The position numbers and the translations under genes are program-made. DNA of 64,000 bases from Nitrosopumilaceae archaeon (GTDB taxonomy: Archaea > Thermoproteota > Nitrososphaeria > Nitrososphaerales > Nitrosopumilaceae). The notes under the pieces were generated by a model. The model saw only the letters and a program-made list of their open reading frames with translations, made no database searches and was not told the origin of the DNA. Positions within the stretch are counted from its first letter, which is position 1, and every line of letters begins with the position of its first letter. Below, piece by piece: positions 14,202 to 62,199 of this stretch. The stretch is from positions 512,001 to 576,000 of the forward strand of contig OZ242376.1 of assembly GCA_965209085.1 (NCBI GenBank). The letters are read 5' to 3'.

Positions 14202-17093
14202 TTAACGGCGTCTTCGAACCGGGCGTTTTGTGGTGCGTTTTACAGTCTTACGTCGTGCACTGGATTTTACGGTACGTTTTTTGATCTTTACACGTTTTAC
14301 AATTTTACGACGTACACTGGATTTCCCAATACGTTTCTTACCCTGTACACGTTTTACAATTTTACGTTGTGCACCAGATTTCACGGTACGTTTTTTGACC
14401 TTTACACGTTTTACAATTTTACGCCCTCTAAACTTTACATTTTTTCTAGCTGGTACACGTTTCACATTTTGCAAAGCTGCCTGTGCTGCGGCAATTATTG
14501 CAATGGGTATCCTATGCGGGGATGCACTAACATAATCAAGTCCGGCTTTATGACAAAATACTATGGACCTTGGATCCCCTCCATGCTCCCCACAAATGCC
14601 AGCTTCAATTCCCCGCCTAGTTTTTCTACCACGCTCCAATGCAATCTTCATCAAATCTCCAACTCCATCCTCATCTATTGACTGGAATGGACTTGTATCA
14701 AGAATCTCTTTTTCTATATACTCTGGCAGAAATTTACCTTCTGCATCCTCTCGGCTAAAGCTAAACGTGGCCTGTGTCAAATCGTTTGTTCCAAAACTAA
14801 AAAATTCAGCAGTCCGTGCAAGATCTCCGGCAGTAAGTGCAGCCCTTACAACCTCTATCATGGTGCCAAAATTAATCTTAAATCTCATCTTGTGTTTTGA
14901 TTGCATTTGCACGCGTACACGCTCGTATATGCTCTTGATATAATCAAGCTCAGCCAAACTTCCCACCTGTGGTACCATTATCTGTGCTATTCCCTTTATC
15001 TTACCACCTGACATGTGAGCTGCTGCCTCAAAGACTGCCCTTATCTGCATCTCGTAAATTTCCGGATACGTGACTGCCACACGCACGCCCCTATGACCCA
15101 TCATGGGGTTTATCTCTGCTAACTCACGTGCCCTCTCCAAAATCGGCCTAAAATTTTCAGCCTCTGATTCGCCCATGGACCTTATCTTATCTGCAAGCTC
15201 TTCAGGATTTGGAAGAAATTCATGCAGCGGCGGATCAAGCAGCCGTATGGTAACTGGCCTGCCACTCATCGCAGTAAGTATCTCTACAAAATCATCTCTT
15301 TGCAGCTGACCAAGCTTTACAAGAGATTTTGCACGCTCTGCATCATCTTTTGCCATTATCATATCCACAAACAACTGTATGCGGTCCTCGCCGTTGAACA
15401 TTCTCTCCGTACGGCACAACCCGATACCTTCAGCACCGTATTCATCTGCAAGTTTGGCACCCTCTGGCGTGTCAGCATTTGCCCGAACGCCAATCTTTTT
15501 TGCCTGCAAAGCCCAAGTTAGGATTTTCTTAAAATCATCTGTCATCTTTGGCTCTATTGTTGGAACGCTGCCAATGTATACTGAACCCGTACTGCCATCG
15601 ATGGTTATAGTATCTCCTTCTGATATTACAACCTCACCGCAGACACATTTGTTGTTTTTTGCATCAATTTTCATCTCTGATGCCCCGACAATGCACGGTT
15701 TGCCCATTCCACGTGCCACTACTGCCGCATGCGATGTCTTACCACCGCGACTAGTCAATATCCCAGCTGATGCAAAAAATGCTGGAACATCCTCCGGTTT
15801 TGTCTCCTCCCGTATCAGTATGATGCTTTTACCATCCTCTCCCATAGCAGTTGCACGTTTTACATCAAATACTGCAACTCCCACGGCAGCTCCGGGGGAT
15901 GCTGCAATTCCTGTAACGGCTTTGGTGTAAGATGGTACTTTGTCATTATCAATCATGTTGTGGAGCAGCTGCTCCAACTGTTCAGCATTCAGGCGCGTAA
16001 TTGCCCTACTTGATGAGATGAGACGCTCTGATACCATGTCTATGCTAGTCTTTATCATGGCAACTGCGTTCATCTTTGCATTGCGCGTCTGCAAAAGATA
16101 AAATCTTCCACGCTCTATTGTAAATTCTATATCCTGCGGTTCCTTGTAGTGTTTTTCCAATTTGCTGCATGTTTGAGCTAACGTCTTGTACGAGTCGGGC
16201 ATCTCATTTCTCATCATATCTACAGGTTTTGGCGTGCGAGTACCAGCTACCACATCCTCACCTTGGGCATTTACAAGATATTCTCCAAAGATCTGCCTTT
16301 TACCATCCCCAGGGTTTCTTGTAAATACGACACCTGTGGCACTATCATCCCCCATATTGCCAAACACCATGGATACAACATTGACTGCCGTACCATTAGC
16401 TATCTCTTTTGTTATGTGATTTTTTCCCCTATACACTATGGCCCTCTCGCCCATCCAGCTTGAAAAAACAGCCTTTATGGCAAGCTCTACCTGTTCCTGT
16501 GGTTTTGAGGGAAATTCTTTTCCGGTATGGTTTTTGCAGATTCTCTTATACTCTGATACTATATTGCGTAAAGAGGCCTCACTTAGCTCCCCATCAGTCT
16601 TTACATTTTGGGAATTTTTTGCACCAGTCAGTACGGTTTCAAATAATTCATCATCTATACCAAAGACCACCTTACCGAAGAGCTGCATAAATCTCCTGTA
16701 CGAATCCCATGCAAATCGTGGATTACTACTCATGGCAGCCAATCCGTCAACTGTTGAATCATTTAATCCCAAATTGAGTATCGTGTCCATCATGCCGGGC
16801 ATCGATACTGCCGCACCAGATCGCACAGAAACCAAAAGCGGGTTTTTTGGATTATTCCACCCTTTGCCGGTTTTTTTCTCCATCCTTGCAATGCCGCGGC
16901 TCACCTGTGATAGGACCTCGCGGTTTAGTTTTTTCCCATTTGCATAGTATGATTTGCATACCTCTGTGGTTATGACAAATCCTGGGGGAACTGGCAGCTT
17001 TAGGCGCGTCATCTCTGAGAGTCCGGCACCTTTGCCTCCAAGCAGTTTCTTATTATTCCCTTTTCCTTCGCTAAAATCATACACTGCCTTCAT
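14202..17093 (-). CDS. ppdK: Pyruvate phosphate dikinase with a Lys/Arg-rich C-terminal tail
   Basis: GGKGAGL, SVRSGA..SMPGMMDT, GGKTSHAAVVAR, FSFGTNDL, GICGEHGG. Confidence 0.97.
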   Translation of the reverse strand: MKAVYDFSEGKGNNKKLLGGKGAGLSEMTRLKLPVPPGFVITTEVCKSYYANGKKLNREVLSQVSRGIARMEKKTGKGWNNPKNPLLVSVRSGAAVSMPGMMDTILNLGLNDSTVDGLAAMSSNPRFAWDSYRRFMQLFGKVVFGIDDELFETVLTGAKNSQNVKTDGELSEASLRNIVSEYKRICKNHTGKEFPSKPQEQVELAIKAVFSSWMGERAIVYRGKNHITKEIANGTAVNVVSMVFGNMGDDSATGVVFTRNPGDGKRQIFGEYLVNAQGEDVVAGTRTPKPVDMMRNEMPDSYKTLAQTCSKLEKHYKEPQDIEFTIERGRFYLLQTRNAKMNAVAMIKTSIDMVSERLISSSRAITRLNAEQLEQLLHNMIDNDKVPSYTKAVTGIAASPGAAVGVAVFDVKRATAMGEDGKSIILIREETKPEDVPAFFASAGILTSRGGKTSHAAVVARGMGKPCIVGASEMKIDAKNNKCVCGEVVISEGDTITIDGSTGSVYIGSVPTIEPKMTDDFKKILTWALQAKKIGVRANADTPEGAKLADEYGAEGIGLCRTERMFNGEDRIQLFVDMIMAKDDAERAKSLVKLGQLQRDDFVEILTAMSGRPVTIRLLDPPLHEFLPNPEELADKIRSMGESEAENFRPILERARELAEINPMMGHRGVRVAVTYPEIYEMQIRAVFEAAAHMSGGKIKGIAQIMVPQVGSLAELDYIKSIYERVRVQMQSKHKMRFKINFGTMIEVVRAALTAGDLARTAEFFSFGTNDLTQATFSFSREDAEGKFLPEYIEKEILDTSPFQSIDEDGVGDLMKIALERGRKTRRGIEAGICGEHGGDPRSIVFCHKAGLDYVSASPHRIPIAIIAAAQAALQNVKRVPARKNVKFRGRKIVKRVKVKKRTVKSGAQRKIVKRVQGKKRIGKSSVRRKIVKRVKIKKRTVKSSARRKTVKRTTKRPVRRRR
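14240..14425 (-). repeat. About 3 degenerate 57-bp coding repeats (RKIVKRV.....)
   Basis: ACACGTTTTACAATTTTACG recurs at 57-bp spacing. Confidence 0.85.
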
Positions 17094-31535: not shown

Positions 31536-31752
31536 ATGTGCATACAATGAATCGTATATTAACACAATAGACCGTCATAATCATTAGGCCTTATGCATAA
31601 TCAATCACTGAGACATACGGTTTCGACTATGACGCTGTCATGATCAAAGTACACATGGCCTAAAACCTTCAAGCAGACAACAAAATAAATCAAAATATCA
31701 TATGCATGACAAAAAGCAGAATATTATGCGTGACTGTATGCACAAAGATGTG

Positions 31753-32907
31753 CTACTTGATTTGAGCGCAAACTTTTTCCAACGGTTCGATATACTTGCG
31801 ATCCTTTAACATGATGTGCAGATTGGTCAGTCCTGTAACCACTTGGATTTCTGTATAAAACGCATCCATTGTATCATCATATACGGCACTCATTCTGCGG
31901 AACCATTTGAGCCGGTTTATGGCATGCTCTACTTTTATGCGCTTACGACTGATTCTCTTGCTGTATTCACGTTCCGTCTCTGTCAGCCCCTTACCCTTTG
32001 GTTTTTTGTACGGCTGCTTTGAGATAATGCCCCGATAGTCTTTTTCCACGGACAGATATCCCTTGTCAGTATATAGCATAATTTGGCGCTCTTTTTTTGT
32101 ATCAGAGTTTTTCATGCCATCGGTCCATTTGCCAAAATTTGGCGGATTACGCCGCAGTACCTCCATGTCATGTACTGAGCCCTCTTCAGGTCCGCCAATG
32201 TCAAGTACCAACCCGTCTTTGTTTGAGGTTATCTGTACGTTGTAGACGTGCCTCTTGCGCTTTCCAGAGTATACTACCTCTTGGTTTTCCTGCGGTCTTT
32301 GAACCTGTACAAACGTGGCATCAAGATACATCTCGCCGCCGCCTCTGCCGGGTACGAATTTTTTAAACAACTCGCTTGTACGTATTGTCCGTATTGCAGC
32401 ACCAATATTCTTAGCCGTTGGAAGAATATTCATCAACAATTCATCAGAAAAGGTCAGATATCTGCTGATGGTGCTCTGATCAACGCCTGCAATGGCCGCA
32501 AGCAATTCCTGTTTAGGATTGTTGCGTTTGCGGCACAGTGTGACAAACAAAATTTGAGATGCAGTGAGAATACAGGTGTTTCCAGGATCGTCGACATAAT
32601 CTGAAAAGCGGGGGACCTTGGGCGAATATTCGATAACTTTTTCAAACCGTTCCTGAATCCATTCAAACTCTTCACGGTTCATTCCAGTCGTCCCGTACAA
32701 ATAATTGTCATCATCAATTATGTGGTTCAAATATTCGTAGGCAGATTGTTGTTTTTCGACCTCATTATCATGTATCGTTTTTTTGTAGTGTTGAATTTCT
32801 GCTTCAAGCTTGGAGATCATCTCTGTTTGCTGGGCGATTATACGCTTGTCTGGGGCACACATGCTGTACGAATGTGATACTAGATCATAGATCTTTCGAT
32901 TTGTCAA
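31753..32907 (-). CDS. IS5-family (DDE_Tnp_4-type) transposase
   Basis: LDATFVQVQRP, YSGKRKRH, GSVHD, DKGY, RIKVEHAINRLK. Confidence 0.92.
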   Translation of the reverse strand: MTNRKIYDLVSHSYSMCAPDKRIIAQQTEMISKLEAEIQHYKKTIHDNEVEKQQSAYEYLNHIIDDDNYLYGTTGMNREEFEWIQERFEKVIEYSPKVPRFSDYVDDPGNTCILTASQILFVTLCRKRNNPKQELLAAIAGVDQSTISRYLTFSDELLMNILPTAKNIGAAIRTIRTSELFKKFVPGRGGGEMYLDATFVQVQRPQENQEVVYSGKRKRHVYNVQITSNKDGLVLDIGGPEEGSVHDMEVLRRNPPNFGKWTDGMKNSDTKKERQIMLYTDKGYLSVEKDYRGIISKQPYKKPKGKGLTETEREYSKRISRKRIKVEHAINRLKWFRRMSAVYDDTMDAFYTEIQVVTGLTNLHIMLKDRKYIEPLEKVCAQIK

Positions 32908-32930
32908 AATTGATTTTTTGGTTAATTATG

Positions 32931-34369
32931 TAGGTCATATCACAACCTGCCTAATTCTGACATTTTGACTAAAACGATATTAAAATATCCAAGTTGGCGA
33001 CAATTTTGATTCCATAGATTTAGATCATCCCACAAAGTGGACGAATTATGAGAAACACCCACGGAGATGATCCACTATGAGTAGAAAGCACTGTGTAATA
33101 AAAATATCGAATGCAGAAACCAAAGAGGCGGATAAAAAAAGAATTGCCGAGAAAAACCTGAAAAGCCGTGCTGCATCCATGCTGTTTGGCCATCTGAGCC
33201 AGTTTGCAGTCCCAAAAGAATACAAAAAAGAACTCAAATGCATGAACAAATGTAAGAACGGCAGACGTTACATGTATCCGGACAAGCTTTTTTGGGTATT
33301 ATCTGTAATTCAAGCGTGCACAAGTTACTCAAGCTGCACTATTGAAGGGATGGTTAGAAAAGTAATGGATGATGCATCTCCATCTAGCAGTACGATATAC
33401 AAACGCATACAGAGATTGGACATTTCTGATAACGGATTGGAAAAGATGGCCCGCATGTGTGGTCTGTCTTTAAAAACACTTGATCCGACAAGGCGCATGA
33501 ACGGACAGCCTACGATGCTCATCTCTATTGATTCAAGAGGACTGAAACTATCAAAACTTGGATCATGGATAAAAGAAAAATGGGGCATATCAAGTCCGTT
33601 TCTAAAACTGCATCTTGTCATAAACGTAGAAACGCTTGAAATACTCGATTTTAAGATAACAAAAAGCAACAAGGGGGATGCATCACAGTTTCCACAGATG
33701 ATAAGAAAGGCACGCAAAAAGATCAGATGGCAGCTTGCGCACATGATATCTGAGATGGATTCAACTGAAGAGACTGCCAAATACAAAAACACAATGATGA
33801 AAATTCTTGGCGATGGGGCATACGGTACAAAAGAAAATTACAACGTGTGTGACAAACTTTGCATGTCTGGTCTGTTAAAGGTGCGTATCAATTCAGCACT
33901 GTCAGGCGGCAGTCATGAACGCAATACGGCGGTGCGAGAACAGCTTGGAGGAGATGCAAGCAAGCGTACAATGGATGATGTTTCAATACAAAAACGAAAG
34001 GAAAATCTGAAAAAATGGAAAAAAGATATAGAGTATGGAAAAAGATGGCACTCTGAAATTGTTTTTGCAATATTCAAAGAAAGGTTTGGAGAACATGTAC
34101 GATCAAGATATATGAAAAACATAAAGCAAGAAATTGGCATGAAAATCCTAGTGTACAATTTGTTAATATGTGCCGTACACTGACACAAACTGCAATAAGC
34201 CTAGCGGACGCTGTATGCAGATGTGTGAATTTTGGAAGATTTTTGTGTAAAATTACGGTTTGATAACAAATGGGTCCGGATATCGATGACAGGTGTGTGT
34301 TTTTGGAAGATTTACTGTCATTTTTGATGGAATTTCCAATAGAATTTTCAATAGTTGTGACATGACCTA
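32931..34369 (+). mobile_element. IS5-family (IS903-like) element
   Basis: 16-bp TIRs TAGGTCATATCACAAC / GTTGTGACATGACCTA (1 mismatch); 8-bp TSD TAATTATG at 32923-32930 and 34370-34377. Confidence 0.9.
33077..34183 (+). CDS. IS5/IS903-like transposase
   Basis: GRRYMY, IDSRGLK..G.W, KLHL, GDGAY, YGKRWHSE..F...K. Confidence 0.88.
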   Translation: MSRKHCVIKISNAETKEADKKRIAEKNLKSRAASMLFGHLSQFAVPKEYKKELKCMNKCKNGRRYMYPDKLFWVLSVIQACTSYSSCTIEGMVRKVMDDASPSSSTIYKRIQRLDISDNGLEKMARMCGLSLKTLDPTRRMNGQPTMLISIDSRGLKLSKLGSWIKEKWGISSPFLKLHLVINVETLEILDFKITKSNKGDASQFPQMIRKARKKIRWQLAHMISEMDSTEETAKYKNTMMKILGDGAYGTKENYNVCDKLCMSGLLKVRINSALSGGSHERNTAVREQLGGDASKRTMDDVSIQKRKENLKKWKKDIEYGKRWHSEIVFAIFKERFGEHVRSRYMKNIKQEIGMKILVYNLLICAVH

Positions 34370-34439
34370 TAATTATGCATAAGGTCTAATGAATCAAATT
34401 AACAATTTTTACAAACAAAAATGAATGATTTGAATGATT

Positions 34440-43649: not shown

Positions 43650-44605
43650 AGATTTCCACTGTTAATGTCTTGCAGACATTTTACAACATTTTCCTTTGAT
43701 ATTGAAATCGGGTTTGGATCCAAATGTCCCCTGTCAGTCATTACAGTATCAGCTGCTTTTTCAACGTCCGCCTTTAACTGCATTTTCTCAAAGCCAAGTT
43801 TCTTGACAATTTCCTTGAATTGTTCGTAAAACTGTGACTTGTTGTGTTTGTGCGCTACAGTAGTGCATGATGAGAGCGAATATCCGTGCGGAACACCCTC
43901 GTTTGAGAATACATACGATAATGCATGACCCAATGTTGTAGAGCAGTTTCCAAATCCAATGCCAGACAGCATTGAACCGTACGGATACATTTCCGGTTTA
44001 TCATTTATAATTGCATCATATAGCACATCAAACGCCTGTTTGCACATTGTACGGGTAAAATCATTTCCAAGTTTGCTGTCATACCCTTCGGTTGCCTGCG
44101 CGCACGCATCGCATACAGAATTGTTTACAATCTGTTGTGGCGTACCCTCCATAAAGTATGAATCAACAACTGCCATATCTGCTAGAAATTTATCCTCTCT
44201 GAGCAGTTTCTTTTTTCCATCAAATTTTAGCACGCAATACGTGGTCATTTCAGCTCCTGTACCAAAAGTTGTAGGGATGAGAATCTTCTCCTTGCCCATC
44301 TCCGGAGCTGAGTATTTTACAACATCCATAGAGCTCCCTCCCCCAAGACCGATTATCACTGATGGATCTTTTGATTTAAACTCTGATATCACTCCGTTTA
44401 CATCATTAATGGACGGCTCTGGTGTTACCTTGTCATACAGCATGTAATCCTCTATTCCCATGCGGTCAAGCCACTTGCCTGAGAGTGCCGGAGGCGCTGT
44501 TGTAACAACTAGGGCGTTTTTTGGGTATTTGGCCTCTGATAGGGCATTTTTGCCAAAATTGATCACTTTGGGTATTTTAAGCGTGTTCACAATCTTTATC
44601 CTCAT
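43646..44605 (-). CDS. Iron-containing alcohol dehydrogenase (candidate semialdehyde reductase of the 3HP/4HB cycle)
   Basis: GLGGGSSMD, IPTT.GTGAE, H..S...PHG; pathway role is inference. Confidence 0.88.
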   Translation of the reverse strand: MRIKIVNTLKIPKVINFGKNALSEAKYPKNALVVTTAPPALSGKWLDRMGIEDYMLYDKVTPEPSINDVNGVISEFKSKDPSVIIGLGGGSSMDVVKYSAPEMGKEKILIPTTFGTGAEMTTYCVLKFDGKKKLLREDKFLADMAVVDSYFMEGTPQQIVNNSVCDACAQATEGYDSKLGNDFTRTMCKQAFDVLYDAIINDKPEMYPYGSMLSGIGFGNCSTTLGHALSYVFSNEGVPHGYSLSSCTTVAHKHNKSQFYEQFKEIVKKLGFEKMQLKADVEKAADTVMTDRGHLDPNPISISKENVVKCLQDINSGNL

Positions 44606-44770
44606 GTATATTCTTATTATACTTTACAATCCATAATTTGTCTAAAACATGGGTTGCTTTGTGTAAAAATCCTTGGTGTTTTTTATTAATTGATATAGGT
44701 GCAAATTACGTACAAGTGCATCATTTTGACTGTTTTAAGATGTGATTGTATTTTTTTTGAATCTTTACAG

Positions 44771-45251
44771 CTGCTGATCTTACCCCATCGGTTCGCAATT
44801 CAGCAGATGTGGTCCATCACGGACATGTAACAAAAAGAGGAAAGCTGAATGATGCGGTGGCCATTGGTGGAATCTGTTACCACCCATGTCCGATTTGCAT
44901 CAGAGAGTAACATTTCTGAATTTTACTGACGTCTTGCAAAAAATAGAGGATCATCCAAGGCCAAAGTTGCAGCAGCCAAGATGCTTGATGTCATATTTTG
45001 TATACTAAAGGATAGGAGTGAATTTGAAATAAATCATAGTTAAAGCAACAAACCGCGGGTTAGATTTTGGGGATGTTACCCCTGCTGCATAATTGCGGTA
45101 AGCTTTAACATGTGGATAAAGATGGTTGTGGGATTAAATCCCGAATGGATAGATGTCTTTTTATTTTTTGACTGGAAACAGACACATAGCGAAAGCCATA
45201 CCGCATGACACAAAAAATCAAGAAACATTTAAAAAGTATTCACACGGATAA
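44771..45251 (+). mobile_element. Truncated IS110-family copy (transposase 3' end, non-coding region and right end)
   Basis: Colinear with 49160-49642; carries a frameshift and a premature TGA. Confidence 0.9.
45038..45170 (+). ncRNA. Predicted bridge RNA, second (variant) copy
   Basis: Same stems and guides as 49431-49560; several substitutions preserve pairing. Confidence 0.6.
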
Positions 45252-45291
45252 ACTTTATTAGCTTTATATACTAGTTTTACTTTACAATAAT

Positions 45292-45504
45292 ATGAACGTT
45301 GGAATAATAGGTATGGGATTATTTTTTACTGGACTAGGGCTTAGTTTGTTATCTGTGTGTATTCAAAATGAGGTAGGTGGATTTCAATATTCTATCAATC
45401 CAAAAGTAGGTGGTATGTTACTCGATACTATTGGAATAGCCATAATGGCATTAGGTGCAGTATTATTAGGTATAATCATATCTAAAAAAGCAAATATTAA
45501 GTAA
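45292..45504 (+). CDS. Small two-TM hypothetical protein
   Basis: 70 aa, two hydrophobic stretches; TATA-like CTTTATATA upstream. Confidence 0.6.
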   Translation: MNVGIIGMGLFFTGLGLSLLSVCIQNEVGGFQYSINPKVGGMLLDTIGIAIMALGAVLLGIIISKKANIK

Positions 45505-45725
45505 AAATTCCAATTATGATAATACAATACTTCAATCTAAATTATGTAATATTATAATAGACCTTGTGCATATCAATCACTAAAACATACGATTCCGACT
45601 ATGACGCTGTCATGATCAAAGTACACATGGCCTAAAACCTTCAAGCAGACAACAAAATAAATCAAAATATCATATGCATGACAAAAAAACAGAATATTAT
45701 ACGTGATCGTGTGCACAAAGATGTG

Positions 45726-46877
45726 CTACTTGATTTGAGGGCAGACTTTTTCCAACGGTTCGATATACTTGCGATCCTTTAACATGATGTGCAGGTTGGT
45801 CAGTCCTGTAACCACTTGGATTTCTGTATAAAACGCATCCATTGTGTCATCATATATGGTACTCATTCTACGGAACCATTTGAGCCGGTTTATGGCATGC
45901 TCTACTTTTATGCGCTTACGACTGATTCTCTTGCTGTATTCGCGTTCTGTCTCTGTCAATCCTCTGCCCTTTGGTTTTTTGTACGGTTGCTTTGAGATAA
46001 TTCCAGGATAGTCTTTTTCCACGGACAAGTATCCCTTGTCAGTATATAGCATAATTTGTCGCTCTTTGTTTGTATCCGAATTTTTCATGCCATCGGTCCA
46101 TTTGCCAAAATTTGGCGGATTACGTCGCAGTACCTCCATGTCATGTACTGAACCCTCTTCGGGTCCGCCAATGTCAAGTACCAGCCCGTCTTTGTTTGAG
46201 GTTATCTGTACGTTGTAGACGTGCCTCTTACGCTTTCCAGAGTATACTACCTCTTGGTTCTCCTGCGGTCTTTGAACCTGCACAAATGTGGCATCAAGAT
46301 ACAGCTCGCCACCGCCCCTGCCTGATGCGAATTTTTTAAACGACTCGATGGTACGCTCTTCCCGTATCGCAGCACCAACATTCTTAGCCGTTGGAAGAAT
46401 ATTCATCAACAGCTCATCAGCAAATACCAGATATCTGCTGATGGTACTCTGATCAACGCCTGCAATGGCTGCAAGCATTTCCTGTTTGGGGTTATTGCGC
46501 TTGCGGCATAGTGCGACAAACAAAATTTGTGGTGCAGTAAGAATACAGGTGTTTCCCGGATCGTCGACATATTCTGAAAAGCGAGGGGTTTCTGGCGAGT
46601 CTTCAACGGCATTTATGAACCGTTTCTGAATCCATTCAAATTCTTCACGATCCATTCCAGTCATCCCGTATAGATAATTGTCATCATCAACCATATGGTT
46701 CAAGTATTCATAAGCAGATTGTTTTTCGGTCTTATCCCCATCTATCATTTTTTTGTAGCGTTGGTTTTCTGCTTCAAGTTTGGAGATTCTTTTTTCCAAC
46801 TTGGAGATTATACGTTTGTCTGTAGCACACATGCTGTGTGATTGTAATACTTGATCATAGATCTTTCGATTTGCCAA
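45726..46877 (-). CDS. IS5-family transposase (copy 2)
   Basis: Same DDE motifs as 31753-32907. Confidence 0.92.
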   Translation of the reverse strand: MANRKIYDQVLQSHSMCATDKRIISKLEKRISKLEAENQRYKKMIDGDKTEKQSAYEYLNHMVDDDNYLYGMTGMDREEFEWIQKRFINAVEDSPETPRFSEYVDDPGNTCILTAPQILFVALCRKRNNPKQEMLAAIAGVDQSTISRYLVFADELLMNILPTAKNVGAAIREERTIESFKKFASGRGGGELYLDATFVQVQRPQENQEVVYSGKRKRHVYNVQITSNKDGLVLDIGGPEEGSVHDMEVLRRNPPNFGKWTDGMKNSDTNKERQIMLYTDKGYLSVEKDYPGIISKQPYKKPKGRGLTETEREYSKRISRKRIKVEHAINRLKWFRRMSTIYDDTMDAFYTEIQVVTGLTNLHIMLKDRKYIEPLEKVCPQIK

Positions 46878-47668
46878 AATTGATTTTTTGGTTAATATGC
46901 ATAACCATATGTGAAGGGATCTTCTAAGACCACAGATGGTTGTAAGAATGTCAAACGATCCGTATCACCGAAACGTAAATCATCTAAAAAAGATCCAAAT
47001 GCAAACAAACAGATTACCACATATTCTGGGAAGAATATGTTTGTTGGAATGGACGTTCACAAGAAATTTCTTCAAGTTGCAATGATGGATAAAAAAGCCA
47101 AAGTGATTTTTAATGAGAGGATTGAAAATGAAAACAAGTCCATCAGCCGATTCTTCAGATCAAGTGTACCTGAAAATGCAAAAATCGTAATGGAATCTTC
47201 GTCCGTATGGTACGGATTATATCGATACATGACAGATAAAATGGGTTATGATGTCGTATTGTCAAATCCATGGGCGACAAAAATCATCGCCGCATCCAAG
47301 AAAAAGACCGACAAGAGGGATGCTGTAACACTTGCAGACCTATTACGGTGCGGATACATATCCCTCTGTCATGTCTCAAACAAGGACATAGTGGAACAAC
47401 GGCAACTTGTACGATATCGCGACAGTCTTGTCAAGACAAGAACAACTCTAAAAAACAAAATACATGGAATTTTGTTACAGGGAGGGATAAAGATCTTTGG
47501 AGCAACATTTACGCTTACATACAATAGAAAACTGCGTTCTCTAAAGGATTACCGTATAAACGGATATTTGGATTCTATTGGATTCGTTAATACAAAAATT
47601 GCAGACTCAAACATAAAAGTACACAACGCATCCTGTTCAAACAAGGATGCAATGTTGCTCAAGACAAT

Positions 47669-49068
47669 AGACCTCATGCATAATTAACTAAAAAATCAAT
47701 TTTGGCAAATCGAAAGATCTATGATCTAGTATCATGTGAGCATAGCATGTGCAAATCAGACAAACGCATGATCTCTAAACTGGAAAAGACGATCTTAAAG
47801 ATGGAAAAGACGATCCTAAAGATGGAAAAGAATAGCTCCAGGCAGGAATCAGAAATTCAACACTACAAAAAGATGGCACAGAGTAGCAATGATGACAAAA
47901 GACAACATGTCGATAAATATTTGAACAAGGGAATTGGGAATGATGTTCATCTATATGAAATGACAGGAATGAACCGTGAAGAATTTGAATGGATTCTAGA
48001 ACGGTTCAAAAAAACCGTAGAAAATTCATCAGAGATTCCCCGCTTTTCAGAATATGTGGACGATCCTGGAAACACCTGTATCCTTACCGTAAAGCAAGTT
48101 TTGTTTATCGTATTGTGCCGCAAACGCAATAATCTCAAACAGGGAGCACTTGCGTTCATTGCAGACGTTGATCAGAGCACCATTAGCAGATATCTGACAT
48201 TTTCTGATGAACTATTGATGGATATTCTTCCAACGGCTAAGAATATTGGTGCTGCAATACGGACAATACGTACAAGCGAGTTGTTTAAAAAATTCGTACC
48301 CGGCAGAGGCGGCGGCGAGCTATATCTTGATGCCACGTTTGTACAGGTTCAAAGACCGCAGGAGAATCAAGAAACAGTATACTATTCTGGAAAGCGCAAA
48401 AGGCACGTCTACAGCATACAGATAACCTCCAACAAAGATGGAGTGGTAAATGACATTGGCGGTCCAGAAGAGGGCTCAGTACATGACATGGAGGTACTGC
48501 GGCGTAATCCGCCAAATTTTGGCAAATGGACCGATGGCATGAAAAACTCTGATACAAAAAAAGAGCGCCAAATTACACTCTACACCGACAAGGGATACTT
48601 GTCCGTGGAAAAAGACTATCCTGGAATTATCTCAAAGCAGCCATACAAAAAACCAAAGGGTAGGGGATTGACAGAGACAGAACGCGAATATAGCAAGAGG
48701 ATCAGTCGTAAGCGCATAAAAGTAGAGCATGCCATAAACCGGCTCAAATGGTTTCGCAGAATGAGTGCCGTATATGATGACACAATGGATGCATTTTATA
48801 CAGAAATCCAAGTGGTTACAGGACTGACCAATCTGCACATCATGTTAAAGGATCGCAAGTATATCGAACCGTTGGAAAAAATTTGCCCTCAAATCAAGTA
48901 GCACATCTTTGTGCACACGGTTACGCATAATATTCTGCTTTTTGTCATGCATATGATATTTTGATTTATTTTGTTGTCTGCTTGAAGGTTTTAGGCCATG
49001 TGTACTTTGATCATGACAGTGTCATAGTAGGAACCGTATGTCTTTGCAGTTGATTATGCATGAACTCT
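47669..49068 (+). mobile_element. ISL2-like element, copy 3 (1400 bp, intact)
   Basis: TIRs AGACCTCATGCATAAT / ATTATGCATGAACTCT; 3-bp TSD AAT. Confidence 0.95.
47702..48901 (+). CDS. IS5-family transposase (copy 3)
   Basis: DDE motifs; 21-bp N-terminal tandem duplication (EKTILKM). Confidence 0.93.
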   Translation: MANRKIYDLVSCEHSMCKSDKRMISKLEKTILKMEKTILKMEKNSSRQESEIQHYKKMAQSSNDDKRQHVDKYLNKGIGNDVHLYEMTGMNREEFEWILERFKKTVENSSEIPRFSEYVDDPGNTCILTVKQVLFIVLCRKRNNLKQGALAFIADVDQSTISRYLTFSDELLMDILPTAKNIGAAIRTIRTSELFKKFVPGRGGGELYLDATFVQVQRPQENQETVYYSGKRKRHVYSIQITSNKDGVVNDIGGPEEGSVHDMEVLRRNPPNFGKWTDGMKNSDTKKERQITLYTDKGYLSVEKDYPGIISKQPYKKPKGRGLTETEREYSKRISRKRIKVEHAINRLKWFRRMSAVYDDTMDAFYTEIQVVTGLTNLHIMLKDRKYIEPLEKICPQIK

Positions 49069-49430
49069 AATACCTGGCATAGGTGATTTTATTTCATTGA
49101 TACTGGCAGCAGAGATTGATGGAGTTGAGAGGTTTTCTGAACCAAAACAACTCAAATCATATGCAGGTCTTGCCCCATCGGTTCGCAATTCAGCAGATGT
49201 GGTCCATCACGGACATGTAACAAAAAGAGGAAGCAGGATGATGCGGTGGGCACTGGTGGAAGCTGTTACCACCCATGTCCGATTTGCATCAGAGAGTAAC
49301 ATTTCTGAATTTTACCGGCGTCTTGCAAAAAAGAGAGGATCATCCAAGGCCAAAGTTGCAGCAGCGGCCAAGATGCTTGATATCATATTTCGTATGCTAA
49401 AGGATAGGAGTGAATTTGAAATACATCATA

Positions 49431-49560
49431 GTTAAAGCAACAAACCGCGAGTTAGAGTTTGGGGATGTTACCCCGTTGCATAACTGCGGTAAGCTTTAAC
49501 ATGTGGACGAAGATGGTTGTGGGGTTAAATCCCGAATGGATAGATGTCTTTTTACCTTTT
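49431..49560 (+). ncRNA. Predicted IS110 bridge RNA (target-binding and donor-binding loops)
   Basis: Stems GTTAAAGC/GCTTTAAC, ACCGC/GCGGT, GGGG/CCCC, GGACG/TGTCT, GGG/CCC; loops match the reconstructed target and donor junctions; T-rich run follows. Confidence 0.75.
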
Positions 49561-49650
49561 GACTGGAAACAAACACATAGCGAAAGCCATACCGCATGAC
49601 ACAAAAAAGCAAGAAACCTTTAAAAAGTATTCACATGGATAAACTCTATT

Positions 49651-49853
49651 GAACCGTTGGAAAAAGTCTGCCCTCAAATCAAGTAGCACATCTTTGTGCA
49701 CACGGTCACGCATAATATTCTGCTTTTTGTCATGCATGTGACATTTTGATTTATTTTGTTGTCTGCTTGAAGGTTTTAGGCCATGTGTACTTTGATCATG
49801 ACAGTGTCATAGTAGGAACCGTATGTCTCAGGGATTGATTATGCATGAACTCT
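49651..49853 (+). mobile_element. 3'-end fragment of the ISL2-like element
   Basis: Matches 48866-49068 including the TIR ATTATGCATGAACTCT. Confidence 0.88.
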
Positions 49854-49946
49854 AATATGTTGAACGTTTTCTTCAATTATTGGTCAATAATGGTTGGGGG
49901 AATTAAATTTATAATCACCTTGAATCTTTGTATGTGCAAAGATAAT

Positions 49947-52132: not shown

Positions 52133-52255
52133 AGAGTTTATGCATAATCAATCGCAGAAACATACGATTCCAACTATGGCATTACCATGATCAAAACGCA
52201 TATGGTGTAAAGTTCTCAAACAGACAACAAAATAAATCAAAATGCCACATGCATG
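52133..52255 (-). mobile_element. Decayed ISL2-like right end
   Basis: AGAGTTTATGCATAATCAA...CAGACAACAAAATAAATCAAAAT matches 60803-60920. Confidence 0.8.
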
Positions 52256-56726: not shown

Positions 56727-57566
56727 TTGAAATTAATTCACGCAAGTATGGATCATGGAAGGTACGAACAAAGAGGGATCACAGAGCCCCGAAAAATAGA
56801 AGGCAATGACGGAAACATTTATGCTGTAAAATTTTCCCCTGCAGATGAACCTGACTCGAACTACAATAGAGCGTATGCATAATGGGTCAAATTCACAATT
56901 TTTACGAATAAAAATGATCGATTTGAATGATTATGCATACGGTCTAATGAATGGCTCGGATCATTGCTGGCTTTAAAATTAGGTGTGGAAGTATTGGAAC
57001 CATTTGTGATGATATTTGATAACGACTTTGTATCAAACTCTAAAGAAATCCAAGATAGTGGAATACGTGCTGGAGCATATTTTGCCACTTTGTATCAACA
57101 TGACAAATACAATTTAAGCGAGTATCTTAATGATGCATCAACCATCAGTAATCTTGAATCAGTTAACGCATTTATAATATTTGACATATTTGTTAATAAT
57201 CGTGATAGGCATGACAGAAACACCATGCTCATACCCAATGCAAAAGCTATTGGATCGCATTACAAATATGTGCTAATCGATCATGGACGCTGTTTTAGAA
57301 TCACAGAGGGAGATTTGCCGTATGAACAACCAAAAATTGAATGGAATACGTCATGTGTTGACACATACAAATTACATGAAAAAATAAACTTTGTTATGGG
57401 GATGGCAACTTTAAATTTACTAGAGTGTATTTTTACCGAAATTGATAAACATGTTAAACGCCCGGCACATGTCGATATGTTGCAAAATGCTCTCATTACC
57501 CGTGATCCTGGAGATATAATGTCAATTATTGACAAGTATTATGGGCATTTACTCGGAGGCCAATAA
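56727..57566 (+). pseudogene. HipA-like Ser/Thr kinase interrupted by a MITE
   Basis: GITEP...DGNIYAVK...YN|EWLGSLLA..LG, FD.FVNNRDRH..N, IDHG; 252 aa when the 81-bp insert is removed. Confidence 0.88.
56868..56945 (+). mobile_element. 78-bp MITE with ISL2-like TIRs
   Basis: AGAGCGTATGCATAAT...ATTATGCATACGGTCT; TSD AAT on both sides. Confidence 0.93.
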
Positions 57567-60802: not shown

Positions 60803-62199
60803 AGAGTTCATGCATAATCAACTGCAAAGACATACGGTTCCTACTATGACACTGTCATGATCAAAGTACACATGGCCTAAAACCTTCAAGCAGACAACAA
60901 AATAAATCAAAATATCATATGCATGACAAAAAGCAGAATATTATGCGTAACCGTGTGCACAAAGATGTGCTACTTGATTTGAGGGCAAATTTTTTCCAAC
61001 GGTTCGATATACTTGCGATCCTTTAACATGATGTGCAGATTGGTCAGTCCTGTAACCACTTGGATTTCTGTATAAAACGCATCCATTGTGTCATCATATA
61101 CGGCACTCATTCTGCGAAACCATTTGAGCCGGTTTATGGCATGCTCTACTTTTATGCGCTTACGACTGATCCTCTTGCTATATTCGCGTTCTGTCTCTGT
61201 CAATCCCCTACCCTTTGGTTTTTTGTACGGCTGCTTTGAGATAATTCCAGGATAGTCTTTTTCCACGGACAAGTATCCCTTGTCGGTGTAGAGTGTAATT
61301 TGGCGCTCTTTTTTTGTATCAGAGTTTTTCATGCCATCGGTCCATTTGCCAAAATTTGGCGGATTACGCCGCAGTACCTCCATGTCATGTACTGAGCCCT
61401 CTTCTGGACCGCCAATGTCATTTACCACTCCATCTTTGTTGGAGGTTATCTGTATGCTGTAGACGTGCCTTTTGCGCTTTCCAGAATATACTGCCTCTTG
61501 ATTCTCCTGCGGTCTTTGAACCTGTACAAACGTGGCATCAAGATATAGTTCGCCGCCGCCTCTGCCGGGTACGAATTTTTTAAACAACTCGCTTGTACGT
61601 ATTGTCCGTATTGCAGCACCAATATTCTTAGCCGTTGGAAGAATATCCATCAATAGTTCATCAGAAAATGTCAGATATCTGCTAATGGTGCTCTGATCAA
61701 CGTCTGCAATGAACGCAAGTGCTCCCTGTTTGAGATTATTGCGTTTGCGGCACAATACGATAAACAAAACTTGCTTTACGGTAAGGATACAGGTGTTTCC
61801 AGGATCGTCCACATATTCTGAAAAGCGGGGAATCTCTGATGAATTTTCTACGGTTTTTTTGAACCGTTCTAGAATCCATTCAAATTCTTCACGGTTCATT
61901 CCTGTCATTTCATATAGATGAACATCATTCCCAATTCCCTTGTTCAAATATTTATCGACATGTTGTCTTTTGTCATCATTGCTACTCTGTGCCATCTTTT
62001 TGTAGTGTTGAATTTCTGATTCCTGCCTGGAGCTATTCTTTTCCATCTTTAGGATCGTCTTTTCCATCTTTAAGATCGTCTTTTCCAGTTTAGAGATCAT
62101 GCGTTTGTCTGATTTGCACATGCTATGCTCACATGATACTAGATCATAGATCTTTCGATTTGCCAAAATTGATTTTTTAGTTAATTATGCATGAGGTCT
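60803..62199 (-). mobile_element. ISL2-like element, copy 4 (1397 bp, intact)
   Basis: TIRs as copy 3; TSD ATT on both sides. Confidence 0.95.
60970..62166 (-). CDS. IS5-family transposase (copy 4)
   Basis: Nearly identical to 47702-48901. Confidence 0.93.
   Translation of the reverse strand: MANRKIYDLVSCEHSMCKSDKRMISKLEKTILKMEKTILKMEKNSSRQESEIQHYKKMAQSSNDDKRQHVDKYLNKGIGNDVHLYEMTGMNREEFEWILERFKKTVENSSEIPRFSEYVDDPGNTCILTVKQVLFIVLCRKRNNLKQGALAFIADVDQSTISRYLTFSDELLMDILPTAKNIGAAIRTIRTSELFKKFVPGRGGGELYLDATFVQVQRPQENQEAVYSGKRKRHVYSIQITSNKDGVVNDIGGPEEGSVHDMEVLRRNPPNFGKWTDGMKNSDTKKERQITLYTDKGYLSVEKDYPGIISKQPYKKPKGRGLTETEREYSKRISRKRIKVEHAINRLKWFRRMSAVYDDTMDAFYTEIQVVTGLTNLHIMLKDRKYIEPLEKICPQIK

Follow-up and report, generated by a model that had tools for sequence, protein, structure and literature searches.

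Insertion of an IS110 element at the TA of IS5-like terminal inverted repeats, and its interruption by a young IS5-like copy, in a Nitrosopumilaceae archaeon

The single-contig, 1.69-Mb genome of an ammonia-oxidizing, Nitrosopumilus-like member of the Nitrosopumilaceae (GCA_965209085.1, contig OZ242376.1) contains, within a stretch of 64,000 nucleotides (positions 512001-576000, here called the window), an IS110-family insertion sequence (IS) that is lodged in the terminal inverted repeat (TIR) of one IS5-like element and is itself split by another. The features of this nested locus are as follows, with positions in the window (ORF, open reading frame).

45559-46901, minus strand: IS5-like copy B, an older copy with a PF13359 domain (ORF 45726-46877) and a nearest relative that is 97.97% identical; its right end reads AGACCT-TG-TGCATAT at 45559, and the inner part of its left TIR stops at 46901.
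46902-46903, plus strand: left one of the two TA cores that border IS110, at positions 7-8 of the TIR of copy B.
46904-47668, plus strand: left part of the IS110 element, beginning with ACCATATGTGAAG (subterminal repeat) and coding for the DEDD_Tnp_IS110 domain; the N-terminal recombinase ORF runs from GTG 46911 or ATG 47037 to 47668.
47666-47668: AAT, the 3-bp left target duplication of copy C.
47669-49068, plus strand: IS5-like copy C, 1,400 bp, CA-type in both TIRs.
49069-49071: AAT, the 3-bp right target duplication of copy C.
49072-49435, plus strand: C-terminal part of the IS110 recombinase, with the Transposase_20 domain, up to the stop codon.
49436-49639, plus strand: right-end noncoding region of IS110 with a seekRNA/bridge RNA predicted from sequence and fold, ending in TTCACATGGA at 49639.
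49640-49650, plus strand: right one of the two TA cores (49640-49641), followed by the outer hexamer AACTCT of copy B (49642-49647) and the flank ATT.
49651-49853, plus strand: fragment E, the final ~200 bp of another IS5-like copy, with a CA-type right end (AGAGTT-CA).

Since copy B hosts the IS110 element (46904-49639, including copy C) and the IS110 element hosts copy C, the order of nesting runs from B through IS110 to C, and the three layers (old IS5, IS110, and young IS5) are real. Copy C has the TIRs AGACCT-CA-TGCATAA on the left and AGAGTT-CA-TGCATAA on the right, contains an intact ORF for a DDE_Tnp_4 protein of 399 amino acids (47702-48901), and has a 100% identical counterpart at genome position 960269. 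This young copy landed later in an AAT inside the recombinase gene, between the parts coding for PF01548 (46911-47665; E=3.2e-28) and PF02371 (49097-49432; E=1.1e-16); a preliminary description of the locus had placed it inside this gene. After in silico excision of copy C together with one AAT, the IS110 frame was open over 375 codons, like those of the two best copies elsewhere in the genome. No direct duplication surrounds copy B (AAT at 45559 versus ATT at 49648-49650), and an internal piece of another IS5-like copy (fragment E) follows directly after the IS110 element and the outer TIR of B, which suggests a rearrangement between IS copies. A similar flank mismatch was observed for the copy at genome positions 961849-963195.

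From its sequence, the interrupted element can be assigned to the IS1111 group of the IS110 family by its recombinase domains, its subterminal repeats, a long 3' noncoding region, and insertions that are specific for site and orientation and repeat the core alone. The subterminal ends (ACCATATGTGAA on the left and TTCACATGGA on the right) form an imperfect inverted repeat that is kept in nine copies. The left end extends over 133 nt before ATG 47037, or 7 nt before GTG 46911, and 204 nt separate the stop codon from the right end. BLAST of the genome revealed nine full-length IS110 copies plus fragments. Two of these copies are 99.7% identical and have open frames, and IS110 activity has therefore been recent, not extinct. 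Among 41 related genomes, this TIR-targeting IS110 element (at least 90% identity) was found only in the genome of the window. The best relative of the recombinase in species-representative genomes was a single locus in a Nitrosopumilus metagenome-assembled genome, with 54% protein identity and an unrelated target; it was informative for the loop architecture only.

IS110 integrates in one orientation at the TA of TIR positions 7-8 in IS5-like elements and in 78-bp miniature inverted-repeat transposable elements (MITEs) with the same TIR. At the left junctions, ...TTATGCA-TA is followed by ACCATATGTGAAG, and at the right junctions, ...TTCACATGGA-TA is followed by six variable bases ending in TCT and then by A(A/T)T. 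The left flank corresponds to the inner part of the TIR, the six bases on the right correspond to its outer part, and the right end of IS110 always faces the outer TIR bases. The hosts comprised three IS5-like copies, eight MITEs, and one site without a TIR (genome position 683411), with 11 of the 12 left junctions lying in one TIR motif. TA was present at 12/12 left and 16/17 right junctions and, in all nine full-length copies, at both. These counts bear out the TA core that the preliminary description had predicted, as well as its statement that the TIR struck in the window has TA, which was found at 46902-46903 and at 49640-49641.

The full-length copy outside a recognizable TIR (genome positions 683411-682071) is bordered by CAGTTA-TA on the left and AGGTCC-ATT on the right and appears to be an off-target insertion, matching mainly on the right side. 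Two IS110 right-end fragments at genome positions 728601 and 959473 have common truncation points and flanks, and other repeats are found ∼231 kb apart at 724245 and 955198; together, these pairs point to a large segmental duplication.

Aiming would be provided by a seekRNA/bridge RNA from the right end of the element. Its predicted target-binding loop (49444-49490) consists of the stem strand ACCGCG, a 5' guide AGTTAGAGTTT, a hairpin, a 3' guide GTTGCATAA, and the stem strand CTGCGGT. The ACCGCG/CTGCGGT stem surrounds an internal loop with a GGGG/CCCC hairpin, and the centroid fold was the same. The 5' side of the loop, TTAGAGTTT, is the reverse complement of the core A, AACTCT, and the flank, and its guide segment would pair with the top-strand core A and the outer TIR bases. 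The 3' side holds TGCA-TA-A, that is, the last four inner TIR bases followed by the core, so that the 3' segment of the predicted RNA would equal TGCA plus the core TA. A putative donor-binding loop (49512-49543) has the layout of the target loop, read against the element's own ends. The fold of the whole right-end region had a z-score of only -1.36, and an Rfam scan of 44600-49900 returned no hit at E values of 1 or less.

UAAC(U/A)GCGG closes the 3' side without variation in five homologous loops, each from an element with a TA core. The hairpins of these loops differ in sequence, yet each can pair (read directly, as one row was misaligned by one column). The sequence TTATGCATAA is palindromic and leaves the register of the 3' guide ambiguous by itself, but the register is settled by the agreement of the homologous loops. 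In a second IS110 family, CGCAGTATA at the equivalent place of the loop is a 9/9 reverse complement of TA plus the right flank. This second family (65-70% identical) has four copies at genome positions 666618, 730252, 857691, and 1173366, which differ in their left flanks and have in common a right flank that begins with TACTGCGG and resembles the terminus of the 89-bp MITE found in the IS110 copy at genome positions 677056-675616; this family, too, seems to be directed to the terminus of a different mobile element.

With the conserved UA of the predicted loops opposite the core, the guides are predicted to read the core. According to the published reports, the top-strand match of IS1111-type elements lies 5' of the bottom-strand match and overlaps it in the target (PMC11187229), the core is included in all guide pairings, with a strong preference for pairing to both core strands (Durrant et al., PMC11208160), and strand exchange by IS621 is staggered around the core (PMC11208158). 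Two guide variants that differ by one base, AGAGTT (type 1) and AGACTT (type 2), are present in the genome. Type 1 was found at AACTCT in 4/4 cases and type 2 in 2/9 (p=0.02). The remaining type 2 copies adjoin CGGTCT, AGGTCT, TGGTCT, ACCTCT, or AGGTCC, and AGGTCT pairs fully with the type 2 guide if one G-U pair is allowed.

The transposase of copy C matched PF13359 (DDE_Tnp_4) above the cutoff (E=8.4e-20) and an N-terminal HTH_Tnp_4 domain (PF13613) weakly (E=1.5e-4; 21.7 bits, under the cutoff of 27). Since it did not pass the NCBI curated IS5 family models (the best, NF033581, reached 59.8 bits versus a cutoff of 140), the family is called IS5-like here. In its DDE_Tnp_4 and HTH_Tnp_4 domains, short TIRs, 3-bp duplication, and derived MITEs, it is similar to IS5 family and PIF-Harbinger-like DDE_Tnp_4 elements, from whose NCBI IS5 models it differs by falling below the cutoffs. 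The TIRs span 15-20 bp, and the 3-bp duplications (AAT, ATT, and AGT) match in most complete copies, with few exceptions. A 2-bp TA duplication was considered and rejected, as one copy has AGT on both sides.

Both a tree and pairwise identities separated two young IS5 subfamilies, ∼13% apart in sequence and each with a uniform TIR type. The CA/CA subfamily comprises six copies (99.28-100% identical; open frames of 404-405 codons). The TA/TA subfamily comprises seven copies (98.36-100% identical), including an identical pair at separate loci, with 390-codon frames open in its six full-length copies. Three of the older IS5 copies are hybrids, TA on the left and CA on the right. The MITE subfamilies, one of which is CA/CA, parallel the CA/TA split, and a hybrid CA/TA MITE type is present at four or more loci. 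From these hybrid MITEs, the transposase seems to tolerate either base at position 7. Other IS5-like, IS110, and MITE members in the window are listed below.

60803-62199, minus strand: IS5-like copy D, CA/CA, with both TIRs as in copy C and the duplication ATT, 99.64% identical to copy C.
31586-32930, minus strand: IS5-like copy A, which falls in the young TA/TA subfamily; its right end is AGGCCT-TA, and element X interrupts its left TIR, leaving the outer part at 34378-34387 (AGACCT-TA, inward from 34387).
52133-52255, minus strand: fragment F, what remains of the right end of an IS5-like copy, TA-type (AGAGTT-TA).
44772-45259, plus strand: right-end fragment of a second IS110 copy, with the 5' guide variant TTAGATTTT and AACTTT after the core.
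56868-56945, plus strand: unoccupied 78-bp MITE whose ends, both TA, belong to the same TIR family.

The preliminary description had presented copies C and D (its copies 3 and 4) as near-identical, with intact duplications and CA-type TIRs, and the ends at 31586, 34387, and 52133 as TA. Both statements are accurate: C and D are flanked by AAT/AAT and by ATT on both sides, respectively, and the three ends read AGGCCT, AGACCT, and AGAGTT before the TA. It was also right that TIR variation is concentrated, with a peak at positions 4-7 (0.88-1.23 bits in 92 ends), whereas positions 13-15 vary little and TGCATAA is nearly constant. This part of the description holds with a qualification, as the TIR search pattern itself fixed positions 1, 2, 9, 11, and 12; ends taken without the pattern show AGA/AGG and TGCATAA nearly throughout.

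Element X (window positions 32931-34369), inside the left TIR of copy A, is a third IS with a DDE_Tnp_1 ORF of 368 amino acids (33077-34183), TIRs that start with TAGGTCAT, and an 8-bp duplication, TAATTATG. Genome-wide, 4 of its 12 BLAST matches, 8 of which are full length, lie in TIRs of IS5-like elements or MITEs, among them one at the equivalent position in the copy at genome position 919137. At window positions 14236-14423, a 57-bp spaced repeat (family D9) is present in three tandem copies that are 82-91% identical.

Across the genome, the free ends of recognizable class numbered 44 TA, 44 CA, and 4 TG, whereas the IS110-occupied ends of IS5-like elements and MITEs numbered 16 TA and 0 CA (naive Fisher p=6e-5). 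With a fragment that has a TG junction scored as an insertion into a CA end, giving at most one occupied CA end, the value was p=8e-4. The unequal use of the two end types that the preliminary description anticipated is thus found. In MITEs alone, 8/30 TA ends and 0/24 CA ends were occupied (p=0.006), and all eight IS110-hosting MITEs have the arm sequence of the TA lineage, none that of the CA/CA subfamily. Sixteen MITE ends reading AGACTT-CA fit type 2, the commonest guide, perfectly except for the core, and all of them are free; the hybrid CA/TA MITEs (4 loci) were struck twice by IS110, both times in the TA end. Since the UA of the predicted guides lies opposite the core, CA ends are probably poor IS110 targets: a CA core would give an A-C mismatch, a G-U wobble, and a mismatch between donor and target cores in the recombination complex. 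Variation of the six outer bases was also considered as a means of escape and rejected, because IS110 adjoins at least six outer hexamers (AACTCT, CGGTCT, AGGTCT, ACCTCT, TGGTCT, and AGGTCC). A metagenome scan for the left junction with any Y-R core returned 38 stretches (15 TA, 9 TG, 8 CA, and 6 CG), and none of the 38 ran into the IS110 left end; the matches are therefore chance ones, and the scan is uninformative on CA-type insertions.

CA ends could instead be as targetable as TA ends and be free by chance or because the CA lineages amplified after most of the IS110 activity, which we consider improbable. Both young IS5 subfamilies would fit this explanation, as they are unstruck whichever core they have (0/12 CA/CA ends and 0/13 TA/TA ends), and so would the confinement of IS110 to older IS5 copies (0/25 young versus 3/21 older ends, p=0.09) and one junction that reads TG. 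However, with an exchange staggered around the core, as taken over from IS621, a target with a TG core should leave TG at one junction (PMC11208158), and 9/9 complete copies have TA at both. The near-identical pair of open-frame copies speaks for recent IS110 activity, and the MITEs struck recently, which have identical or near-identical unoccupied hybrid counterparts, were entered at TA ends, while their CA ends were left free. The conserved UA, which is predicted to read the core, likewise argues against equal targetability. That the occupied ends look like TA merely because IS110 brings its own core, as this explanation would have it, is similarly improbable.

With the pattern AGNNNN-YR-TGCATAW, CA was found in 45/105 hits here and in 0/63 hits in the sister species (G001), whose IS5-like family is 71-75% identical. 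Judged by these sequences, CA is derived and TA ancestral, and CA is specific to the present genome within the two genomes compared, the family being present in only one other (G001) of the 41 related genomes. The CA share of IS5 copies does not depend on age (12/25 ends in young copies versus 7/19 in older ones, p=0.55), an outcome that the preliminary description had named as refuting its interpretation. It had contrasted young CA copies with older TA ends, and this contrast is not borne out: the "older" ends at 31586 and 34387 both belong to copy A, which falls in the young TA/TA subfamily (nearest relative 99.33% identical, 390-codon frame open); CA is also found on the truncated fragment E at 49853; and the TA/TA subfamily is equally young. 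The left ends of this subfamily (AGACCT-TA) are free although they fit the type 2 guide no worse than sites that IS110 did use, and the absence of IS110 from young copies therefore needs no special explanation.

Taken together, we moderately favor an account in which an old IS5-like copy (B) was struck in its left TIR by an IS1111-type IS110 element aimed at TA, a young copy (C) completed the three-layer stack, and CA became abundant by subfamily expansion. Amplification of one CA/CA IS5 subfamily and one CA/CA MITE subfamily would suffice for the abundance of CA in young copies, and selection for escape would not be needed. Several points weigh against this account. The occupancy counts treat ends as independent, although the ends come from few amplified lineages. 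Depending on the share of CA ends that the IS110 insertions would have encountered, the probability that 0/16 occupied ends are CA falls from 0.07 at a share of 0.15 to 0.0002 at a share of 0.42. In older IS5 copies alone, the difference in occupancy (3/12 TA versus 0/7 CA) is not significant (p=0.26), and the rules for the core are borrowed from IS621, a bacterial IS110-group element. The IS110 right-end fragment at genome positions 670225-670409 (junction at 670405) reads GGG-TG-AACTCT, not GGA-TA-AACTCT, and may be a trace of insertion into a CA-type end or a product of decay. Finally, the T-to-C change at the core position occurs in at least three outer contexts (AGACCT, AGAGTT, and AGACTT) and in all four end classes, and nowhere in G001; this recurrence exceeds a minimal drift model and leans toward selection.

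Such selection would amount to escape: IS110 insertion splits a TIR and kills the host copy, so that lineages with a TA-to-CA change in the core would be favored and amplified. We regard this as possible but rather doubtful. It is consistent with the absence of CA from the sister species and with its spread over IS5 left ends, IS5 right ends, and both MITE ends in several outer contexts. It is likewise consistent with the lack of occupied CA ends, the free AGACTT-CA ends of MITEs, and the hybrids struck in their TA ends. The equally young and intact TA/TA subfamily, however, thrives with none of its 13 ends struck, CA is unrelated to copy age, occupied IS5 ends number just three, and position 7 belongs to the freely varying TIR block of positions 4-7, which counts against selection. 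Moreover, the comparison involves two genomes and copies that are not independent. Of the escape from conflict that the preliminary description had proposed, the vacancy of CA ends is retained and the link to age is not; its caveat that neutral drift might equally account for the pattern stays a fair reading.

The split between subfamilies could also reflect co-specialization of transposase and TIR, with each IS5 subfamily moving its own ends only and IS110 playing no role. The uniform TIR types of two young subfamilies ∼13% apart, and their mirroring by the MITE subfamilies, would agree with such co-specialization, but hybrids exist (three IS5 copies and a MITE type at four or more loci). As the hybrid MITE type must have moved as a hybrid, position 7 seems irrelevant to transposition, and we hold this explanation to be very improbable.

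A related IS110 element is represented in the sister species G001 by right-end fragments at two loci (L035 and L036), which adjoin TGCATACGGTCT. Here the insertion point in the same TIR family is the inner TA (positions 13-14), and the fragments have a shifted 5' guide (CGTATGCAT). The use of another TA with a matching guide indicates that guide and target shift over evolutionary time, an observation that would also be compatible with escape. It is conceivable, though rather unlikely, that a running arms race proceeds via the RNA guide, in which the change of the IS5/MITE core from TA to CA blinds the IS110 seekRNA and IS110 retunes its guides. That the two guide variants here and the relative at the other TA of the palindromic TIR in the sister species represent such retuning is a tentative suggestion. 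Equally speculative is the idea that the young CA copy splitting the sole open-frame type 1 IS110 was one episode of this race.

The position of copy C inside IS110 is most simply explained as incidental, a by-product of young IS copies gathering in IS-rich spots. An IS5-like insert is present in one of the nine full-length IS110 copies, and another full-length copy (genome positions 677056-675616) holds an unrelated 89-bp MITE. Another IS lies within 500 bp of 3/6 young CA copies and 5/7 young TA copies (8/13 in total), and the IS5-like target is a mere 3-bp A-N-T. Copy C nevertheless disabled the only open-frame IS110 with a type 1 guide.

Targeting of TIRs by IS1111-group elements (IS4321/IS5075), guidance by seekRNA or bridge RNA, and natural guide diversity are already known. 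A 2003 report by Partridge and Hall is said to describe an IS110-family element with subterminal repeats that targets the TIR of another transposon family. The element described here shares with IS4321/IS5075 the fixed position and orientation inside the TIR of another transposon family; unlike in that precedent, the host is an archaeon, the targets are IS5-like (DDE_Tnp_4) elements and 78-bp MITEs, two guide variants coexist, and a variant of the core dinucleotide is common in the targets. PMC11187229 (Siddiquee et al. 2024) mentions a target logo for IS4321 and describes the seekRNA-guided IS1111 elements ISEc11, ISPa11, and ISKpn4, which likewise have a long noncoding region downstream of the recombinase gene and, in a layout like the one predicted here, complementary segments, 5' to the top strand and 3' to the bottom strand, that overlap at the crossover. 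In contrast to those elements, structure and guides are predicted here from sequence alone, and the recombinase is distant from its database relatives (54% protein identity at best, in the species-representative genomes). According to the reports on the IS621 bridge RNA (Durrant et al. 2024, PMC11208160; Hiraizumi et al. 2024, PMC11208158), IS621 has the target and donor loops and the reading of the core dinucleotide in both loops that are predicted here, and it shares a DEDD/RuvC-like plus Tnp recombinase; its RNA, however, lies in the left end, with the guide order reversed and a CT core, versus the right end and a TA core here. Literature searches found no description of the present system, which is no proof that none exists; what is new is that the host is an archaeon, that an IS5-like/MITE family is targeted, that guide variants coexist, and that a core variant is common in the target.

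IS110-family recombinases with bridge RNA or seekRNA are under development as programmable genome-writing tools, which makes natural cases of target and guide change useful. The present genome offers a compact natural experiment, with ∼17 independent insertions and two guide variants in one archaeal chromosome of 1.69 Mb and ∼90 free target sites whose differences lie mainly in the core and three neighboring bases. It leads to the prediction that a single T-to-C change in the core would abolish targeting, whereas changes in the three adjacent bases would be tolerated. If escape were true, this would be a clear example of a transposon evolving resistance to another; as it is, we regard the locus as a nested-IS site of the ordinary kind that makes a good model system.

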